From NCBI GenBank assembly GCA_963675245.1, contig OY775910.1, forward strand, positions 1,024,001 to 1,088,000: DNA of 64,000 bases, read 5' to 3'. The DNA comes from Acholeplasmataceae bacterium (GTDB lineage Bacteria > Bacillota_I > Bacilli_A > Acholeplasmatales > Acholeplasmataceae). Of the stretch, positions 24,001 through 30,000 are shown piece by piece. Within the stretch, counting starts at the first letter, position 1, and each line of letters starts with the position of its first letter. A program made the position numbers.

Positions 24001-27000
24001 TTTAGTGTCGTCTTTCACGATTGTCATAAAACGATCATATGTATGATATTCATCAAGTTTTAAAGCTTTCTTTCTAAGTTTTATATAACGTCTTACTGTT
24101 TCATTTGACTCATAAGCAGCGTCCATTAAATTCTTATAAACATCTAAAGGAATGTTATTGCCGAATAAAGCTGCTTCAAGTGCTGAACTATATTCACGTG
24201 ACGTATAGTTTGCTTTTGCTTGTTGTAAGACTAAATTATAAATATTAGCAAATGTAGTTTTATTATCTTTAAAACGTTTGAAAGCAGCTTCAAAGATAGT
24301 TTTACGATCTTCAGCATTTTCCGCATTCGTAATTAAAGAACGGAAGTTTGTTAATGTAACAACCTGTTTTTTACCATTTGATAAAATGACTTCTTCGTCT
24401 TTAGCATCAACAATGGATAATGCTTGATAAAGTTGTGCTGGTACAGAACGAAGCGTACCGAAGTTTGCAAGTAAACTTTCTTTGTCATCGCTTAGCACAT
24501 GCGCTTGTTGTGCAAATAATCTTTGAAGAGGGAAGCGATAGGTTTTAAGTAAATCATCTTTTTCAACAAATGACATGACTTTTTCTTCACCTAATGCGAT
24601 AAGCTCTGGATTGACATAACTAACTTTCTGATTAAGCTCTGAGAACTGCAACATAATTTGTTGGTTCTTTGCCATCTTATCTTGATCTTTTAGGTTTAAG
24701 TCACTTGCTAAATGAATATAAGCGAATAAGCGATAAAAGAAATGTGATGCTTCTTCATCTGCTTCATAAAAAGCTTTAAAGGAATCAAAATCTCCTAATT
24801 TACCTTTGAATGATGCTAGTTTTTCAATATAGCTTGGTAATTTTTCTAAATCTTTTTCCCAAGCTTCAATATTTGGATAAAATTGTGATAAATCCCAGTG
24901 TGACATAATTAATACCTCTTTCGTTATTGATATGGTTCCATTATACATGAAATAGGGTTCAAACATGAACTTTGATAGATGCTAAATTATGAAAAATAAA
25001 TGGAAAAACGCTTCCACAGGTTGCAATATAAGGCCATCCATAATATAATGAAACTTGCAGGTGGAGACCATAAGTGCTATAGGCTAATACCTATGCTCCA
25101 AGAGGAGGAAGACAATGATTACGATTTATACAACACCTAGTTGTTCATCTTGTCGGAAAGCGAAAAAGTGGCTCGATGATCATAAGATCAACTATGAGGA
25201 AAAGAACCTTTTCAATTCTCAAATCACTGAAGAGGATATTGACCGCATGCTCGAGCATTCGGAAAATGGATTTGAAGACATTATCTCAACGCGTTCAAAA
25301 GTATTTAAAGAAAATGATTTAGATATTGATGATATGCGTATTAGTGAATTAAAATCCTTTATCTTAGATAATCCAAGTGTTTTAAAGAGACCAATCATGA
25401 TTGATGGTGGCAAACTTCAAGTTGGTTACAATGATGAAGAAATACGCGTATTCATTCCAAAACGCCTGCGGGAAATGATTATGTGTGTTGATTGTCCTAA
25501 TGGTGATAATTGTGATTACCAATCTATTTTGAAACAATATTTCGCAGAAATTAAAGAGAAGCAACAGTCAAATTAAGACGGAAGAGAACTTCCGTTTTTT
25601 TGTAGATGATTTGTCAATTATCGTTCAAAAAAAAGAACCATTAAAGGTTCTTATTTATTAGTGAATCTTTTCTTAATTGGTCCAAAGAATCCAGCCACTG
25701 ACGTAGCGACCATAAGGACAAGACCTAAAAGATATATCGTTTTAACAGTTGGTGCAAAATTTGAAGTCACATAAGGTGAATTAACCAATACACCAATATG
25801 TTCAATGTGTAATGCAGCGAATACCGCAAACAAAGAAGCACTAATTAAAACCATAGTTTCATCTTCAAAATACCAACCAAACCATAAAATGGCAACTGGA
25901 ATAATATAATAATAATAGTCGAGAAGGACAATGTCTGCATAGTCAGGTTCTTGGAAAAACTTAAAAAAACGAATGACGATTGACATGACGAGTAATATAC
26001 TCGCTATTATAGCGGTGATGAAATACAGTATGTTGCGATCTTTCATGATAACCTCCAGGACATAATACCTTATTCTAATTATATGTTTAAAGCCAATAAA
26101 TGTCAATTTTTTATCAGAAAAAATAGCCCTTTTAGGCTATCTTCTGCATGTAAAGGCTCTTTCGCTCTTTCTTTTTATAGGAATTGGTGTAATATTGCAA
26201 TTTGAAAGCAATTTTTCAAAAACGATTTTACCATCTTCATAATTGTTAGCTTCATACTCTAATTCATAATCTGTCACGTTGCAATAATCACAACGATCAA
26301 GGAATAATGTGCCACCTTCGTAAGGTGTGCTTACACGGTAATTATCCAAACTGACTTGGAAAGTGACAAATTCATCTATATCATCAAAAAACTCTTTTGT
26401 ATAAAAGCCATTTTCAATCATATCCATCGCTTTTTCTTTTTTTAAGACAAAATGTTTCTCATAAGCTTCTTTATCACTTTGACATTTTAAAGTAACCTTA
26501 AAAAGTTCACCTTTTTGTCTAATGCGAAGAACAATTTGTTTTTGACTCAAAATATATTCATTTGTGTCAAAATAATGATTTATTTGTTTGAAAACATTAT
26601 TTTCAAGATCAAATTTTTTAAGTAGATACTGGTATGTTTCCAGCGGTATAATCGTTTTAAATTCGATTTCAACGTTTTGTGTCATCTTTTACTCCGATCA
26701 TGTACAATTTGCCCCTATACATTATACCAAAATTACCCATATTTTTAAAGAAAAAACGTTTACATTTAAATCAAATATTCTAATTATTTGTTTTTAGTTA
26801 TAGTAATGGTAAAATAGTGATGAAGAAATAATCCACTCAAGGAGGAAATTATAATAATGGCTATTAAAGTAGCAATTAATGGGTTCGGCCGTATAGGTCG
26901 TCTCGCTTATCGTTTGATCTCAGATGATCCAACGTTTGATGTCGTTGCAGTAAACGACTTAACTGATGCAGAAACACTTGCATATTTATTGAAGTATGAT

Positions 27001-30000
27001 ACAGCACAAAGACCTTTCAGCAAAGAAGTAACTTTTGAAGGTAACGATTTAGTGGTTGCTGGTGACCGTTTAACGGTTTTATCAGAAAGAGATCCTAAAT
27101 TATTACCATGGAAAGAACTTGAAGTCGATGTTGTATTAGAATGTACTGGATTCTTTGCAAGTAAAGAAAAAGCGTCATGGCATTTAGAAGCAGGTGCTAA
27201 AAAAGTTGTTATTTCTGCACCAGCTGGTAGTGACGTTAAGACAGTCGTGTATAACGTTAATGATGATGTATTAAGTGCAGATGATGATATCGTAAGTGGT
27301 GCTTCATGTACAACAAACTGCCTTGCTCCATTATTGAAAGTATTAGATGATAACTTTGGTGTTAAAGGTGGATTCATGACAACTGTTCATGCTTACACTG
27401 CTGACCAATCACTTCAAGATCAACCACACAAAAAAGGCATTCTTTCTAGACGTGGTCGTGCAGCTGCTGAAAGTATTATTCCATCTTCAACTGGTGCTGC
27501 AAAAGCGATTGGCCTTGTATTACCTAACTTAAAAGGTAAATTAGATGGTACTGCTTTACGTGTACCAACAGTCACTGGTTCTATCGTTGACTTAACAGTA
27601 GAAGTTAAAAATCATACAGATTTAGAAGCGGTTGATAAAGCATTCAAAGCAGCAGCAAACGAAACATTAGCTTATGTCTTTGATCCAATCGTATCAAGTG
27701 ATGTTATCGGCACAAGATTTGGTTCATTATATGATGCACACACAACTCAAGTTGTTAACTATGATGATAGACAATTAGTTAAAGTTATGGGTTGGTATGA
27801 CAATGAAATGAGTTATACATCACAATTAATTCGCACAGTTCAAAAATTAGCAAGTTTGATTAAATAATGTAAAGAATTGGTAATTAAAATCCCCAAAAAC
27901 GGGATTTTTTACTTTTTCCTTGACATTGTAAGTTAAATCTACTAAAATAAATTGGATAATATAGAGTATTATCGAAACTAGACAGATGTAAAGAGCAAAA
28001 CTAGAGGGATCTAGTGACGCAAAGCTATAGGGCCTAGACAAGGTAGCCAGTTGCCATTTAGAATTTTAAAAATGGTAATTTGACTCGGCTCTGATTAATC
28101 TCATTAAGCAAAGGTCAACATTACCAAGTTGACCTTTTTATTTTCAAATATTTTAGTAAGGGAGGCATGCCATGAAATCACGTCGGAGTATACAGTACAT
28201 GGTTATTGTACTACTCGTGGCCGCATTAGGGTTTACATCATCAGCAGCAGTAGCATATTGGAATGATGTAAGAAATGTATCTAATGTTGTTATTAATTTC
28301 TCTGACGAAGAAGCAGAACTACTAATTGAACAGACAAGTGAAGACTTCACCGGAACATTAGTGCCTCATTATTATGATTTCTTTGAGGGGCAAACAGATG
28401 AAGCAATATTCACTTATACGGTTGCAGTAGATAAAACGCTTGTCAAAGAAGTTAAATTGATTGTAGAAGCAATCAACATTCAAATTGGGGGATCTGATCA
28501 GTATACTAACCTTGTACATATCAAGATCAACGAGAATGACATGTATCATGTGAATAATTTATTCAATTCAGAGGTGACGATCACGGTAGTTGTAACACTA
28601 GATGAACCGATTGATCAGCAAGAAGCTCTCGATAGAGGGTTAGATGAGAGTTTCGTTAATGTCACGGATTCAGTGGCTGCGTACGAGACCATAAAAGGTG
28701 AGGTTATAAGTTTCACACTCAGCTTTTTAGTAGAGCCAAAAGAAACTTCAGAAACATAAACTCAAAAAATCCAATGTAAAAAAACAATGTAAAAAACAAA
28801 AATCCAATGTAAAAAAAAACAATGTAAAAACAAAAATTCAATGTAAATAAGGAAAGGGAATTTAAAAATGAAAAAAAGAAATTTAGTTATTGGTTTATTA
28901 GTTACTTTAGCGGTTGCATTAACAGGAGCAACATTTGCGTTTTGGGCAGGCGGCATTAGCAATGCAGATATAACAAATACAGGTACAATCACAATTGGGG
29001 ATGCTGATGCAGTAACTACTGCTGTGAGTACAAGTGACTATGTAGTTGCGGGTAGTTCATTAGTTCCAGTAGGTTATGAGGATGCTGGTGATAGTGAAGT
29101 TAGCAGTGTAGATTTAGAATTCGTCGTTATGTGGAATGGTACAGGTGCTGAAGGTGCGCTTGGTACACTTAACGTTACAGTAGATTCTGTTGTTATTAGT
29201 GGTGGTGCTTCAGATGGTCAAGAAGTTGAAGTTGGCGCAGCTAGTAGTTGGGATCTATTCACAGTTGATTTAAGTAATGTAACTGGTGTTGCAGTTGTTA
29301 ATGGTACTGCTACAGGCACACTTTTAATCACTGTTACATTTACAAATGAACCTGCTGATGCAGCTCAATATGCAGCAATTGCAACTAATAGTATTATCGT
29401 TACTTTAAGCTTTGACGTTACAGCTGCTTAATATAGTTAACAATATCATCTAACGAATCATGGTCGAAAGACCATTTTCGTGCGTAAGGAGGTCTCATAG
29501 ATGGAAATAAGAATACTAAACTTAAAACAAATATCATCATTGATTATTCTTTTCATGCTATCTATGTTCCTCACAACATTTACTTATGCTACCTGGATCA
29601 CAGGAATCGAGGATGGCTTAGGTACAGGTTTAGGTACCATTTCCATTGGTGCATGGACACAAGAACCAGAAGGTATTGATGCTTATAGTCCTACAATTGG
29701 TTATAGTAGTGGTGCGCTTGTCTGGTTTGAAGGTGATTTCTGGATTTATAAAGGTAATTATTCGTTTGGATTAGACCCTTCAATTGCTAATGGATGGACA
29801 TATTTAAACGATCTTAATTGGTATTCAAATATCATTTATCAAGCAAACGAAGTCGTCTATACAAACGGTATTGTATTCCAAACTTCTGGATATACTGTTG
29901 GTGATAATCCACTTGATGGTGCACCGTGGAATAGCATGATGAATAATCAAGTACAGTGGATTACCGGTCAAGCAGTTACCTTAAATGAAATTGTATTTTA

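Follow-up and report, generated by a model that had tools for sequence, protein, structure and literature searches.

The yjbK-gap junction in the 64,000-nucleotide stretch of Acholeplasmataceae DNA analysed here (the window) raises the question of how a cell obtains NADP(H), or manages without it, once ppnK, the gene for NAD kinase (NADK), has gone from its ancestral site. NADP(H) and NADK are treated as near-universal and essential, and the sole exception given in a 2015 review is a parasite. In this genome (G000, one contig, 99.96% complete), yjbK and gap are divergent and lie 171 bp apart (Table 1). A six-frame translation of the spacer, judged by eye, gave no recognisable NADK remnant, and the junction lay within one contig in two runs, both from one sample that is possibly the source of this assembly; no RNA data set covering the junction was listed. 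The gap product carries the motif VNDL, which we take to be an NAD-type Asp motif.

Table 1. The ancestral ppnK site and other window genes referred to in the text
Feature	Position in window	Strand	Remarks
yjbK, CYTH-domain protein	26137-26685	minus	PF01928 E 8e-20; left edge of ancestral ppnK site
Spacer, 171 bp	26686-26856	no strand	position of ppnK in sister families
gap, glyceraldehyde-3-phosphate dehydrogenase	26857-27867	plus	PF00044 and PF02800; right edge of ancestral ppnK site
YegS/DAGK-like kinase, NADK/PFK/DAGK fold	21022-21873	plus	Pfam match
spx-like ArsC-family gene	25115-25576	plus	member of conserved tyrS-dagK-trpS-pepF-spx-yjbK-(ppnK)-gap block
dxr	42492-43628	plus	basic residue after second strand present in this genome

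The initial annotation had described a clean, family-wide deletion of ppnK at this site and a ppnK gene beside yjbK in sister families, and both statements held. PF20143, the NADK C-terminal domain (NE and TPxGSTAY motifs), was detected neither in this genome nor in any of the 171 other family genomes, versus 119 of 135 genomes from four sister families. The family set comprises 172 species-level genomes, among them closed genomes of 1.5-1.9 Mb with NAD salvage genes; such counts include kin, and related genomes are non-independent. We chose 14 sister loci out of the 119 genomes with a match, preferring long contigs. NADK directly adjoins yjbK in 13 of them, gap following directly in nine and one or two ORFs further on in four, and at these 13 loci the gene adjoining NADK is 42-51% identical to our yjbK. 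The sister ppnK genes encode about 250-265 aa, are co-directional with gap, score above the PF20143 cut-off and have invariant GGDGT, NE and GST motifs (14/14); against NCBIfam NF003424 the sister gene gave E 1e-58 and 198.7 bits, below the cut-off of 220. Regarding the family itself, yjbK abuts gap in four of the five other genomes tested, the fifth having no yjbK match, and no inserted gene was found at the site in five family genera, where it is closed.

One could argue that a very divergent ppnK lies elsewhere and escaped the profiles. The PF20143 scores of the sister NADKs are themselves weak (E 1e-7 to 1e-28), and the genome search scores first-look candidates only; domain scans covered 8 plus 63 proteins with Pfam and 20 proteins, relatives included, with NCBIfam, in a genome of about 1,550 ORFs. 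However, a profile of the 14 sister NADKs, the nearest relatives, run exhaustively (hmmsearch --max) over 28,264 six-frame segments of this genome, gave a best E of 0.47. As had been noted earlier, matches to PF01513, the N-terminal GGDGT domain, are weak and partial: there are two, in pfkA and also in a DAGK-like gene, the better reaching 20 bits against a cut-off of 25.5. In this genome, GGDG-type kinase motifs are confined to PFK and DAGK-like genes. Across the 172 genomes no NADK was found by two profiles, the single match of the sister profile (E 0.005) being a DAGK-like gene, and the ancestral site is closed in five genera. An overlooked ppnK is thus largely refuted for this genome, and we give it next to no credence. 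The loss of NADK across Acholeplasmataceae is real.

A second loss, which the initial annotation had not covered, was found in the neighbouring order labelled Izemoplasmatales, with NADK present in 2 and absent from 156 of 158 genomes. PF01513 matches in 41 of 65 genomes of this order were rejected as NADKs, being short and partial; all three that were checked are PFKs. Both NADKs of the order lie directly upstream of nfnA-nfnB, each on a 6-kb contig, and no shared candidate was found directly upstream of nfnA in four of its NADK-less genomes. NADK has been lost in two large lineages, Acholeplasmataceae and nearly all of the neighbouring order. For Acholeplasma and Izemoplasma, a literature search that took in few subscription papers, and not the Acholeplasma genome papers, listed no account of missing NADK.

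As previously claimed, the residues that contact the 2'-phosphate are lost in TrxB, DHFR, GpsA and Gnd of this genome and kept in FNR, AroE, TyrA and Zwf; for all enzymes but Zwf, these residue roles are assumed ones. The Asp of GpsA and the GDH pattern are likewise taken to be NAD-type. The Arg in the beta2-alpha2 loop of Zwf was present in 42 of 42 family and 8 of 8 f4 sequences (f4 being one of the sister families); the first 180 positions of the family sequences include 29 invariant ones, this Arg among them. The passages of PMC8546961 drawn on here treat this G6PD Arg as a mark of NADP or dual specificity that the most NAD-specific G6PDs lack, and the title of Levy 1996, cited there, states that it matters for NADP and not for NAD. 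With the Arg present, Zwf would be classed as an NADP-dependent or dual G6PD. FNR has HRRxxFRA in 9/9 sequences, its six residues being among 49 invariant of 319, and the GRS Arg of FolD was found in 17/17 family versus 11/13 sister sequences.

Other contacts have disappeared. The equivalent of DHFR Arg44 is missing from 16 of 17 family and all 14 sister sequences, and the Gly-loop Arg from 12 of 13 family FabGs; the TrxB and FabG contacts are lost in this family and in f4, and that of DHFR order-wide. The suggestion that the motif changes predate the loss of ppnK stood for DHFR (throughout) and TrxB (in f4 too) and fell for Gnd, whose long form keeps its Arg in the others sampled (one family, two sister) and has lost it in this genome only. 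Short NAD-type Gnds occur in two other genomes (G005 and G048), two family genomes have an NADP-type TyrA and one sister an NAD-type one, and the HRR of TrxB is kept in two NADK-less genomes of the neighbouring order. Dxr, normally NADPH-dependent, was discarded as an NADP marker, its basic residue (3/12 family, 8/14 sister sequences, one fragment dropped) being too variable. Given the losses in DHFR and FabG, essential biosynthesis may not need NADPH.

Transhydrogenases, also beyond the initial annotation, shuttle hydride from one cofactor pool to another and would serve no purpose in a cell with a single pool. Intact pntA1-pntA2-pntB and nfnA-nfnB clusters occur in NADK-less genomes. We detected pntB in 16 of 171 NADK-less family genomes, adjoining pntA wherever the locus is long enough; no PntB was found in this genome. 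Three of the 16 PntBs (G057, G066 and G082) have the K-R-S of the domain III NADP(H) site, aligned to 9l76_C. One of these loci sits beside rplK-rpoBC genes 76-81% identical to those of this genome, and the K-R-S PntBs are under purifying selection, with dN/dS of 0.05 and 0.11 (0.05-0.11 over five PntB pairs). In the other 13 the site reads N-Y-D, with the channel motifs and the Asp of domain I conserved. In genera g8 and g6, Zwf was found in 0/4 and 0/1 and Pnt in 6/6 and 1/1, respectively. An N-[YF]-D variant is present in 8/8 f4 PntBs, and N-Y-D was rejected as a marker of NADK loss, 41 of 50 other-lineage carriers (50 of 80 listed loci) having NADK; a literature search that took in few subscription papers and no older enzymology listed nothing on this variant. 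In the neighbouring order, nfnA-nfnB with the YRR motif in NfnB occurs in four of five NADK-less genomes. As in the known PntAB (PDB 9l76, 4o9u) and NfnAB, the clusters are intact, three PntBs keep K-R-S and four NfnBs keep YRR, whereas here they stand in genomes without a known NADP route and most family PntBs differ at domain III. The initial annotation had concluded that an NADP source or uptake is implied; continued use of NADP is supported by PntAB, NfnAB, Zwf, FNR and FolD, while the source is a deduction from motifs, and life without NADP keeps some probability.

The explanation we favour, giving it an even chance, is that a small NADP pool persists and is made by a non-homologous or moonlighting phosphotransferase. 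Across the wider order, the enzymes that use much NADPH would have shed the contacts to the 2'-phosphate before the deletion, as the observed motif states suggest, and would have shifted to NADH or ferredoxin. Because DHFR, TrxB and FabG were already without these contacts, deletion of ppnK would have been tolerable, in the family ancestor and, as a separate event, in the neighbouring order, each of them seen as absence. A smaller NADP(H) pool would remain for Zwf, the YumC-type ferredoxin reductase, FolD, PntAB and NfnAB, judging by conserved residues and gene retention. Its maker would be an intracellular enzyme with no relation to ppnK, or else a kinase or phosphotransferase already present that phosphorylates NAD as a sideline, with PPi as a possible phosphate donor. 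We read the data as a small pool because the Zwf Arg, FNR HRRxxFRA, FolD Arg, canonical PntAB and NfnAB YRR are retained, and favour this reading because demand is small and a non-homologous plant NADK exists. For an assumed pool of 0.1-0.3 mM, demand comes to 0.003-0.03 uM/s, a kcat below 0.006/s at 5 uM enzyme (assumed inputs). Against it, no candidate gene fits, this genome lacks both the Gnd Arg and PntB, 13 of 16 family PntBs have N-Y-D and not K-R-S, and an NADK directly upstream of nfnA-nfnB is what would be expected if an NADP-free host had imported the kinase with its consumer.

NADK had been called the only known NADP(H)-making enzyme, which is incorrect: Arabidopsis NADKc-1 (At1g04280) is described as a P-loop, zeta-toxin-like NAD kinase unrelated to ppnK (bioRxiv 10.1101/521658). 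It illustrates the kind of replacement proposed here, but it is a calmodulin-dependent plant enzyme, and this genome has no full zeta-toxin domain (PF06414), the only match being 43 P-loop positions in a uridine kinase gene. The full domain occurs in one of five genomes (this one and four relatives), and a zeta-toxin-like kinase was thus rejected as the replacement. So were a FlaR-like P-loop kinase (in 1/4 family genomes and also in one sister) and yjbK itself, missing from one of five family genomes (G045) and from 5/5 of the neighbouring order. The two PFKs, which a sister has as well, are no new replacement and were kept as possible moonlighters only.

Along with these PFKs, the tyrS-linked DAGK-like gene would be a fold-related, weak candidate. 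It has DAGK_cat and YegS_C domains in a two-domain fold, with Z 22.8-19.2 against lipid kinases and 13.6-10.6 against NADKs. Like the lipid kinases YegS, DgkB and BmrU (PDB 2bon, 2qvl, 4wer; same fold, Z 19-21, rmsd 3.2-4.0, 242-252 aligned), it has the GGDG, GTGND, NxxGxGxD, GGGM and DG motifs; it differs from its canonical paralog in missing about 14 residues after GTGNDF and in falling below the YegS family cut-off (TIGR00147, 98.5 bits against 118.65; the paralog at contig position 848512 passes with 182.3). No NADK family match was found for it in NCBIfam. The gene is absent from one genome (G104) and equally common in NADK-bearing sisters; being lipid-kinase-like and present in sisters, it was rejected as a gained substitute. 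We retain it, with little confidence, as a gene that might moonlight as an NAD kinase, because it is the sole DAGK-family gene of a 0.7-Mb genome (G023).

Cells could instead be free of NADP and run on NAD(H) plus ferredoxin or flavodoxin, which we find possible and rather doubtful. The kept Arg motifs would then pack against adenine or take up free phosphate where the 2'-phosphate would sit, as happens in mammalian MTHFD2, and NADP-type enzymes would be slow with NAD(H). PFOR-, Rnf- and Mbx-like genes are present. The contact losses in DHFR, TrxB and FabG, the presumably NAD-type GpsA and GDH of this genome, its altered Gnd and the short Gnds of its relatives, and the occurrence of neighbouring-order NADK only beside nfnAB all point this way, and the fact that the gene was lost twice, separately, suggests that the barrier is low. 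However, PntAB and NfnAB, useless with one pool, are kept intact, with PntB under the purifying selection described above; the TyrA of two family genomes is NADP-type, unlike the NAD-type one of a sister; and the Zwf Arg is invariant though relevant to NADP, not NAD (title of Levy 1996, via PMC8546961). For three mollicutes, PMC3942410 gives NAD and NADH in its main text with no entry for NADP, which does not discriminate.

We consider it unlikely that an unrecognised transporter lets the cells scavenge NADP(H) whole, or a piece of it that still bears the 2'-phosphate (2'-phospho-ADP-ribose, for example), from lysed biomass, serum or host, as assumed for Chlamydia. The rich habitats of family members and the small demand computed from assumed inputs would suit uptake, and the bacteria already known to lack NADK depend on hosts, which are assumed to supply them (PMC4518329). 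This genome nevertheless keeps PncB, NadD and NadE, and therefore NAD would be built from nicotinate and not from imported dinucleotides; a weaker point is that the TLC/NTT carrier PF03219 was found in 0 of 5 genomes, with control genomes likewise without a match. Acholeplasma laidlawii was reportedly grown in the 1960s on a defined medium without NADP. Very improbable is a different second dinucleotide in place of NADP, bound by the N-Y-D domain III and the altered DHFR, TrxB and FabG pockets. Both sites of the 13 N-Y-D PntBs do look 2'-phosphate-blind, the domain I Asp being NAD-type, but the variant is not tied to the loss, given its presence in f4 and in NADK-bearing lineages, and Zwf, FNR and FolD keep canonical Arg motifs.

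NADK-less bacteria are already in print, all of them host-dependent (PMC4518329, PMC4866288, in the passages cited). Chlamydia trachomatis, the textbook case, likewise has no NADK gene and an unexplained NADP source (PMC4518329); it is one obligate intracellular parasite, whereas here the absence spans 172 genomes with a defined deletion site, plus 156 of 158 of a second order. The swine mycoplasmas M. hyopneumoniae, M. flocculare and M. hyorhinis, also wall-less, have no NADK homolog, and the reaction was put into their models manually since NADP(H) appeared to be required (PMC4866288). They have small host-bound genomes and belong to another lineage, and the passage in question notes the gap without analysis and gives no locus, motif or transhydrogenase evidence (PMC4866288).

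On balance, we lean slightly towards an either/or: these free-living bacteria would be the first shown to do without any NADP, or a bacterial NAD kinase of a new class is concealed in them. In the former case, anabolic reductases would be rewired to NADH and ferredoxin, the leftover pockets holding free phosphate or another dinucleotide; in the latter, the kinase, possibly PPi-driven, might account for Chlamydia and the swine mycoplasmas as well. Efforts to develop antibacterials target NADK, and one NADK-less lineage, Acholeplasmataceae, includes cultured members, so NADK-less life is testable at the bench. Such work would yield a novel enzyme for making NADP, a novel route of uptake or proof of a cell with a single pyridine nucleotide. 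If life without NADP were true, it would be relevant to minimal-cell design and would provide natural NADH-using forms of DHFR, FabG and TrxB.

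Within a gene block of the window comprising tyrS, a DAGK-like gene, trpS, pepF, spx, a small membrane gene, yjbK and gap, the last two genes are separated in G000 (the genome under study) by 171 bp, a spacer with no recognisable kinase remnant. We hand-picked 14 loci among sister-family genomes with an NAD kinase (NADK, gene ppnK) match, and yjbK directly adjoins the NADK gene in 13 of them, the locus of sister family f5 being the exception; gap comes next after NADK in nine and one or two ORFs on in four. Direct yjbK-gap adjacency was also found in four further genera of the family. 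The G000 assembly consists of one contig with a completeness rating of 99.96%. Screening it with PF01513 returned two partial matches below the cut-off, at pfkA and a DAGK-like gene, and an unfiltered search of its 28,264 six-frame segments with a profile of 14 sister NADKs detected no NADK (best match, E 0.47). An assembly gap was rejected in favour of a clean ancestral deletion of ppnK. Besides, the window contains a c-di-GMP-I riboswitch, which precedes a series (28172-32808) of signal-peptidase-like genes and genes for proteins predicted to be secreted; similar segments are present on other contigs of the same sequencing runs.

Features located in G000 and its relatives
Feature	Location	Strand	Remarks
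yjbK	window 26137-26685	minus	left side of former ppnK site
gap	window 26857-27867	plus	right side of former ppnK site
c-di-GMP-I riboswitch	window 27984-28058	plus	RF01051, 58 bits
DHFR	G000 contig 1448232-1448708 (L065:8233-8706); relatives L084-L113		NADPH 2'-phosphate Arg lost
N-[YF]-D PntAB clade	L296-L316, L318-L397 (e.g. L307:1462-2847)		domain III K-R-S NADP site replaced
N-Y-D PntBs with tandem domain III	L325, L329, L350, L358, L366, L376, L392 and others		

The initial annotation had proposed that ppnK was deleted between yjbK and gap throughout the family, which it named Acholeplasmataceae and which bears the label f1. The proposal is borne out by this spacing and by PF20143, found in 0/171 other family genomes; across four sister families it was detected in 119/135 genomes (94/106, 4/5, 20/22 and 1/2). 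The sister profile matched one of the 172 family genomes (E 0.005), a hit discarded as NADK, being the DAGK-like ortholog. In the neighbouring order (Candidatus Izemoplasmatales), the profile matched 2 of 158 genomes of unstated completeness. PF01513 matches in 41/65 genomes of this order were rejected as NADKs: they are short, and the three checked were all phosphofructokinases. Both genuine NADKs come from 6-kb contigs, on which nfnA-nfnB follows immediately downstream of the kinase gene (L452, L453, L514 and L515). Because the sister families retain ppnK beside yjbK, as Bacillus does, we infer that NADK was lost twice independently, in the family and in the neighbouring order.

For the motifs of DHFR, TrxB, FabG, GpsA, Gnd, FNR, FolD and TyrA, we assume the residue roles usual for each enzyme. 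In an alignment to solved DHFRs of 30 of the 32 matches plus G000, the Arg44 equivalent was missing from 16/17 family and 14/14 sister sequences. Order-wide, the NADPH 2'-phosphate Arg is lost, with Asp or Glu often in its place, and judging from sequence the DHFR of the order is likely a natural NADH-using family. TrxB lacks HRR in 3/3 family and 3/3 f4 (a sister family) orthologs. Among the 17 best of 30 FabG loci, the rest being set aside as paralogs, the Gly-loop Arg is missing in 12/13 family and 2/2 f4 sequences and present in 3/3 from sister family f2. These three losses are older than the ppnK deletion and are best read as the pre-adaptation permitting it. GpsA, examined in G000 alone, has an NAD-type Asp. 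The Gnd motif change claimed in the initial annotation holds for G000, where the Arg is lost, and does not extend to G058 (a family genome) and two f4 genomes, which keep it. G000 also encodes an 876-aa DUF1015-glutamate dehydrogenase fusion (contig 868771-871401; L059:3772-6399) with a cofactor loop NAD-type in appearance, and an Mbx/Mrp-like membrane complex (contig 465389-476000; L054) whose last gene is a ferredoxin-GltD fusion without the usual NADPH-binding YRR motif.

Other enzymes keep their motifs. Of the 100 family genomes with a completeness of 90% or more, 58 have Zwf; the counts are 8/12 for f4 and 0/70 for f2. After aligning 41 of these 58 family sequences with that of G000, Arg44 was invariant in 42/42, as one of 29 invariant positions among the first 180; one study describes this Arg as a mark of NADP or dual use (PMC8546961). 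HRRxxFRA was found in 9/9 YumC-type FNRs (eight found among 20 genomes, plus G000) and the FolD Arg in 17/17 sequences. G000 and G058 have an NADP-type TyrA; that of the sister genome G299 is NAD-type. An island common to G057 and G066 (L441, L442) holds a second zwf with the Arg retained, a short NAD-type gnd, a transaldolase-like gene and an adjoining ABC transporter.

pntB was detected in 16/171 family genomes (six genera), 8/22 from f4 and 0/113 others, and is absent from G000. Three family PntBs, forming a separate clade, have the canonical K-R-S site; one adjoins native rplK-rpoBC, and dN/dS of the canonical pntB was 0.05 and 0.11 (simple Nei-Gojobori count). The Zwf-less genera, g8 and g6, are those with Pnt in every genome. 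In the neighbouring order, nfnA-nfnB with the YRR motif occurs in 4/5 genomes (30 of 45 matches fetched). Pnt and Nfn require two cofactor pools and are therefore the strongest argument for NADP(H) persistence. In the remaining 13 family PntBs, N-Y-D replaces K-R-S and domain I is NAD-type. This form occurs widely among anaerobes, in at least 120 stretches, and 41 of 50 tested carriers have NADK, so we rejected it as an adaptation to NADK loss. Hosts of the N-[YF]-D PntAB clade are Bacteroidales, Clostridia, Mobiluncus and the wall-less lineages studied here; its NAD-type Asp of domain I is retained, the loop GGYA is mostly GKHA and the channel motifs are intact. Many N-Y-D PntBs have two or three tandem copies of domain III, with fusion to the alpha-2 membrane part in some.

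Our searches show the deletion and how widely it extends, as well as the second loss and the states of the motifs; from these we infer that NADP(H) is still used, and likewise its source. That an NADK gene is present and was missed by the profile searches is extremely improbable. A metabolism free of NADP, which would suit the lost motifs and sit poorly with the kept ones and with canonical Pnt, is a lesser though real possibility, and another dinucleotide in place of NADP is very unlikely. PncB, NadD and NadE are present in G000, and NAD is therefore made from nicotinate. Uptake of NADP seems unlikely. A search for the TLC carrier gave no match, in a test without positive control. An unrecognised internal enzyme might supply NADP, a reading to which we give about even chances. 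Under assumed pool sizes, we roughly estimate that a side activity of less than 0.006 per second would suffice to offset dilution by growth.

As NADK replacements, yjbK, a FlaR-like kinase and zeta-toxin-like kinases were rejected for their too patchy distribution. Found 4 kb from the deletion, the DAGK-like gene occurs in the family, its sisters and the neighbouring order alike; G104 lacks it, and the 0.7-Mb genome G023 has no other gene of this type. The protein model (pLDDT 89) is nearer lipid kinases (Z 19-23) than NADKs (Z 10.6-13.6), and the gene is a weak candidate only. Separately, a uridine-kinase-like P-loop protein of G000 adjoins a small ECF S-component-like membrane protein (contig 76744-77875; L049), possibly a vitamin salvage pair.

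A 2015 review describes NADK as the sole de novo NADP source, names Chlamydia trachomatis as the one exception, though by its own table 96% of bacterial genera have NADK (PMC4518329). Three swine mycoplasmas are also reported without an NADK homolog (PMC4866288), and Arabidopsis has a P-loop NAD kinase unrelated to NADK (bioRxiv 521658). A phytoplasma review touches on NAD synthesis and gave no match for ppnK (PMC3322544). The main text of a metabolome paper has an NADP entry for none of three mollicutes and is therefore non-discriminating (PMC3942410). We found no report of NADK loss in Acholeplasmataceae in a literature mostly outside subscription journals and supplements, so that a passing mention in a genome paper may have escaped notice. 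Loss of NADK is a type of gap already known, and here it extends across hundreds of genomes that retain NADP-type machinery.
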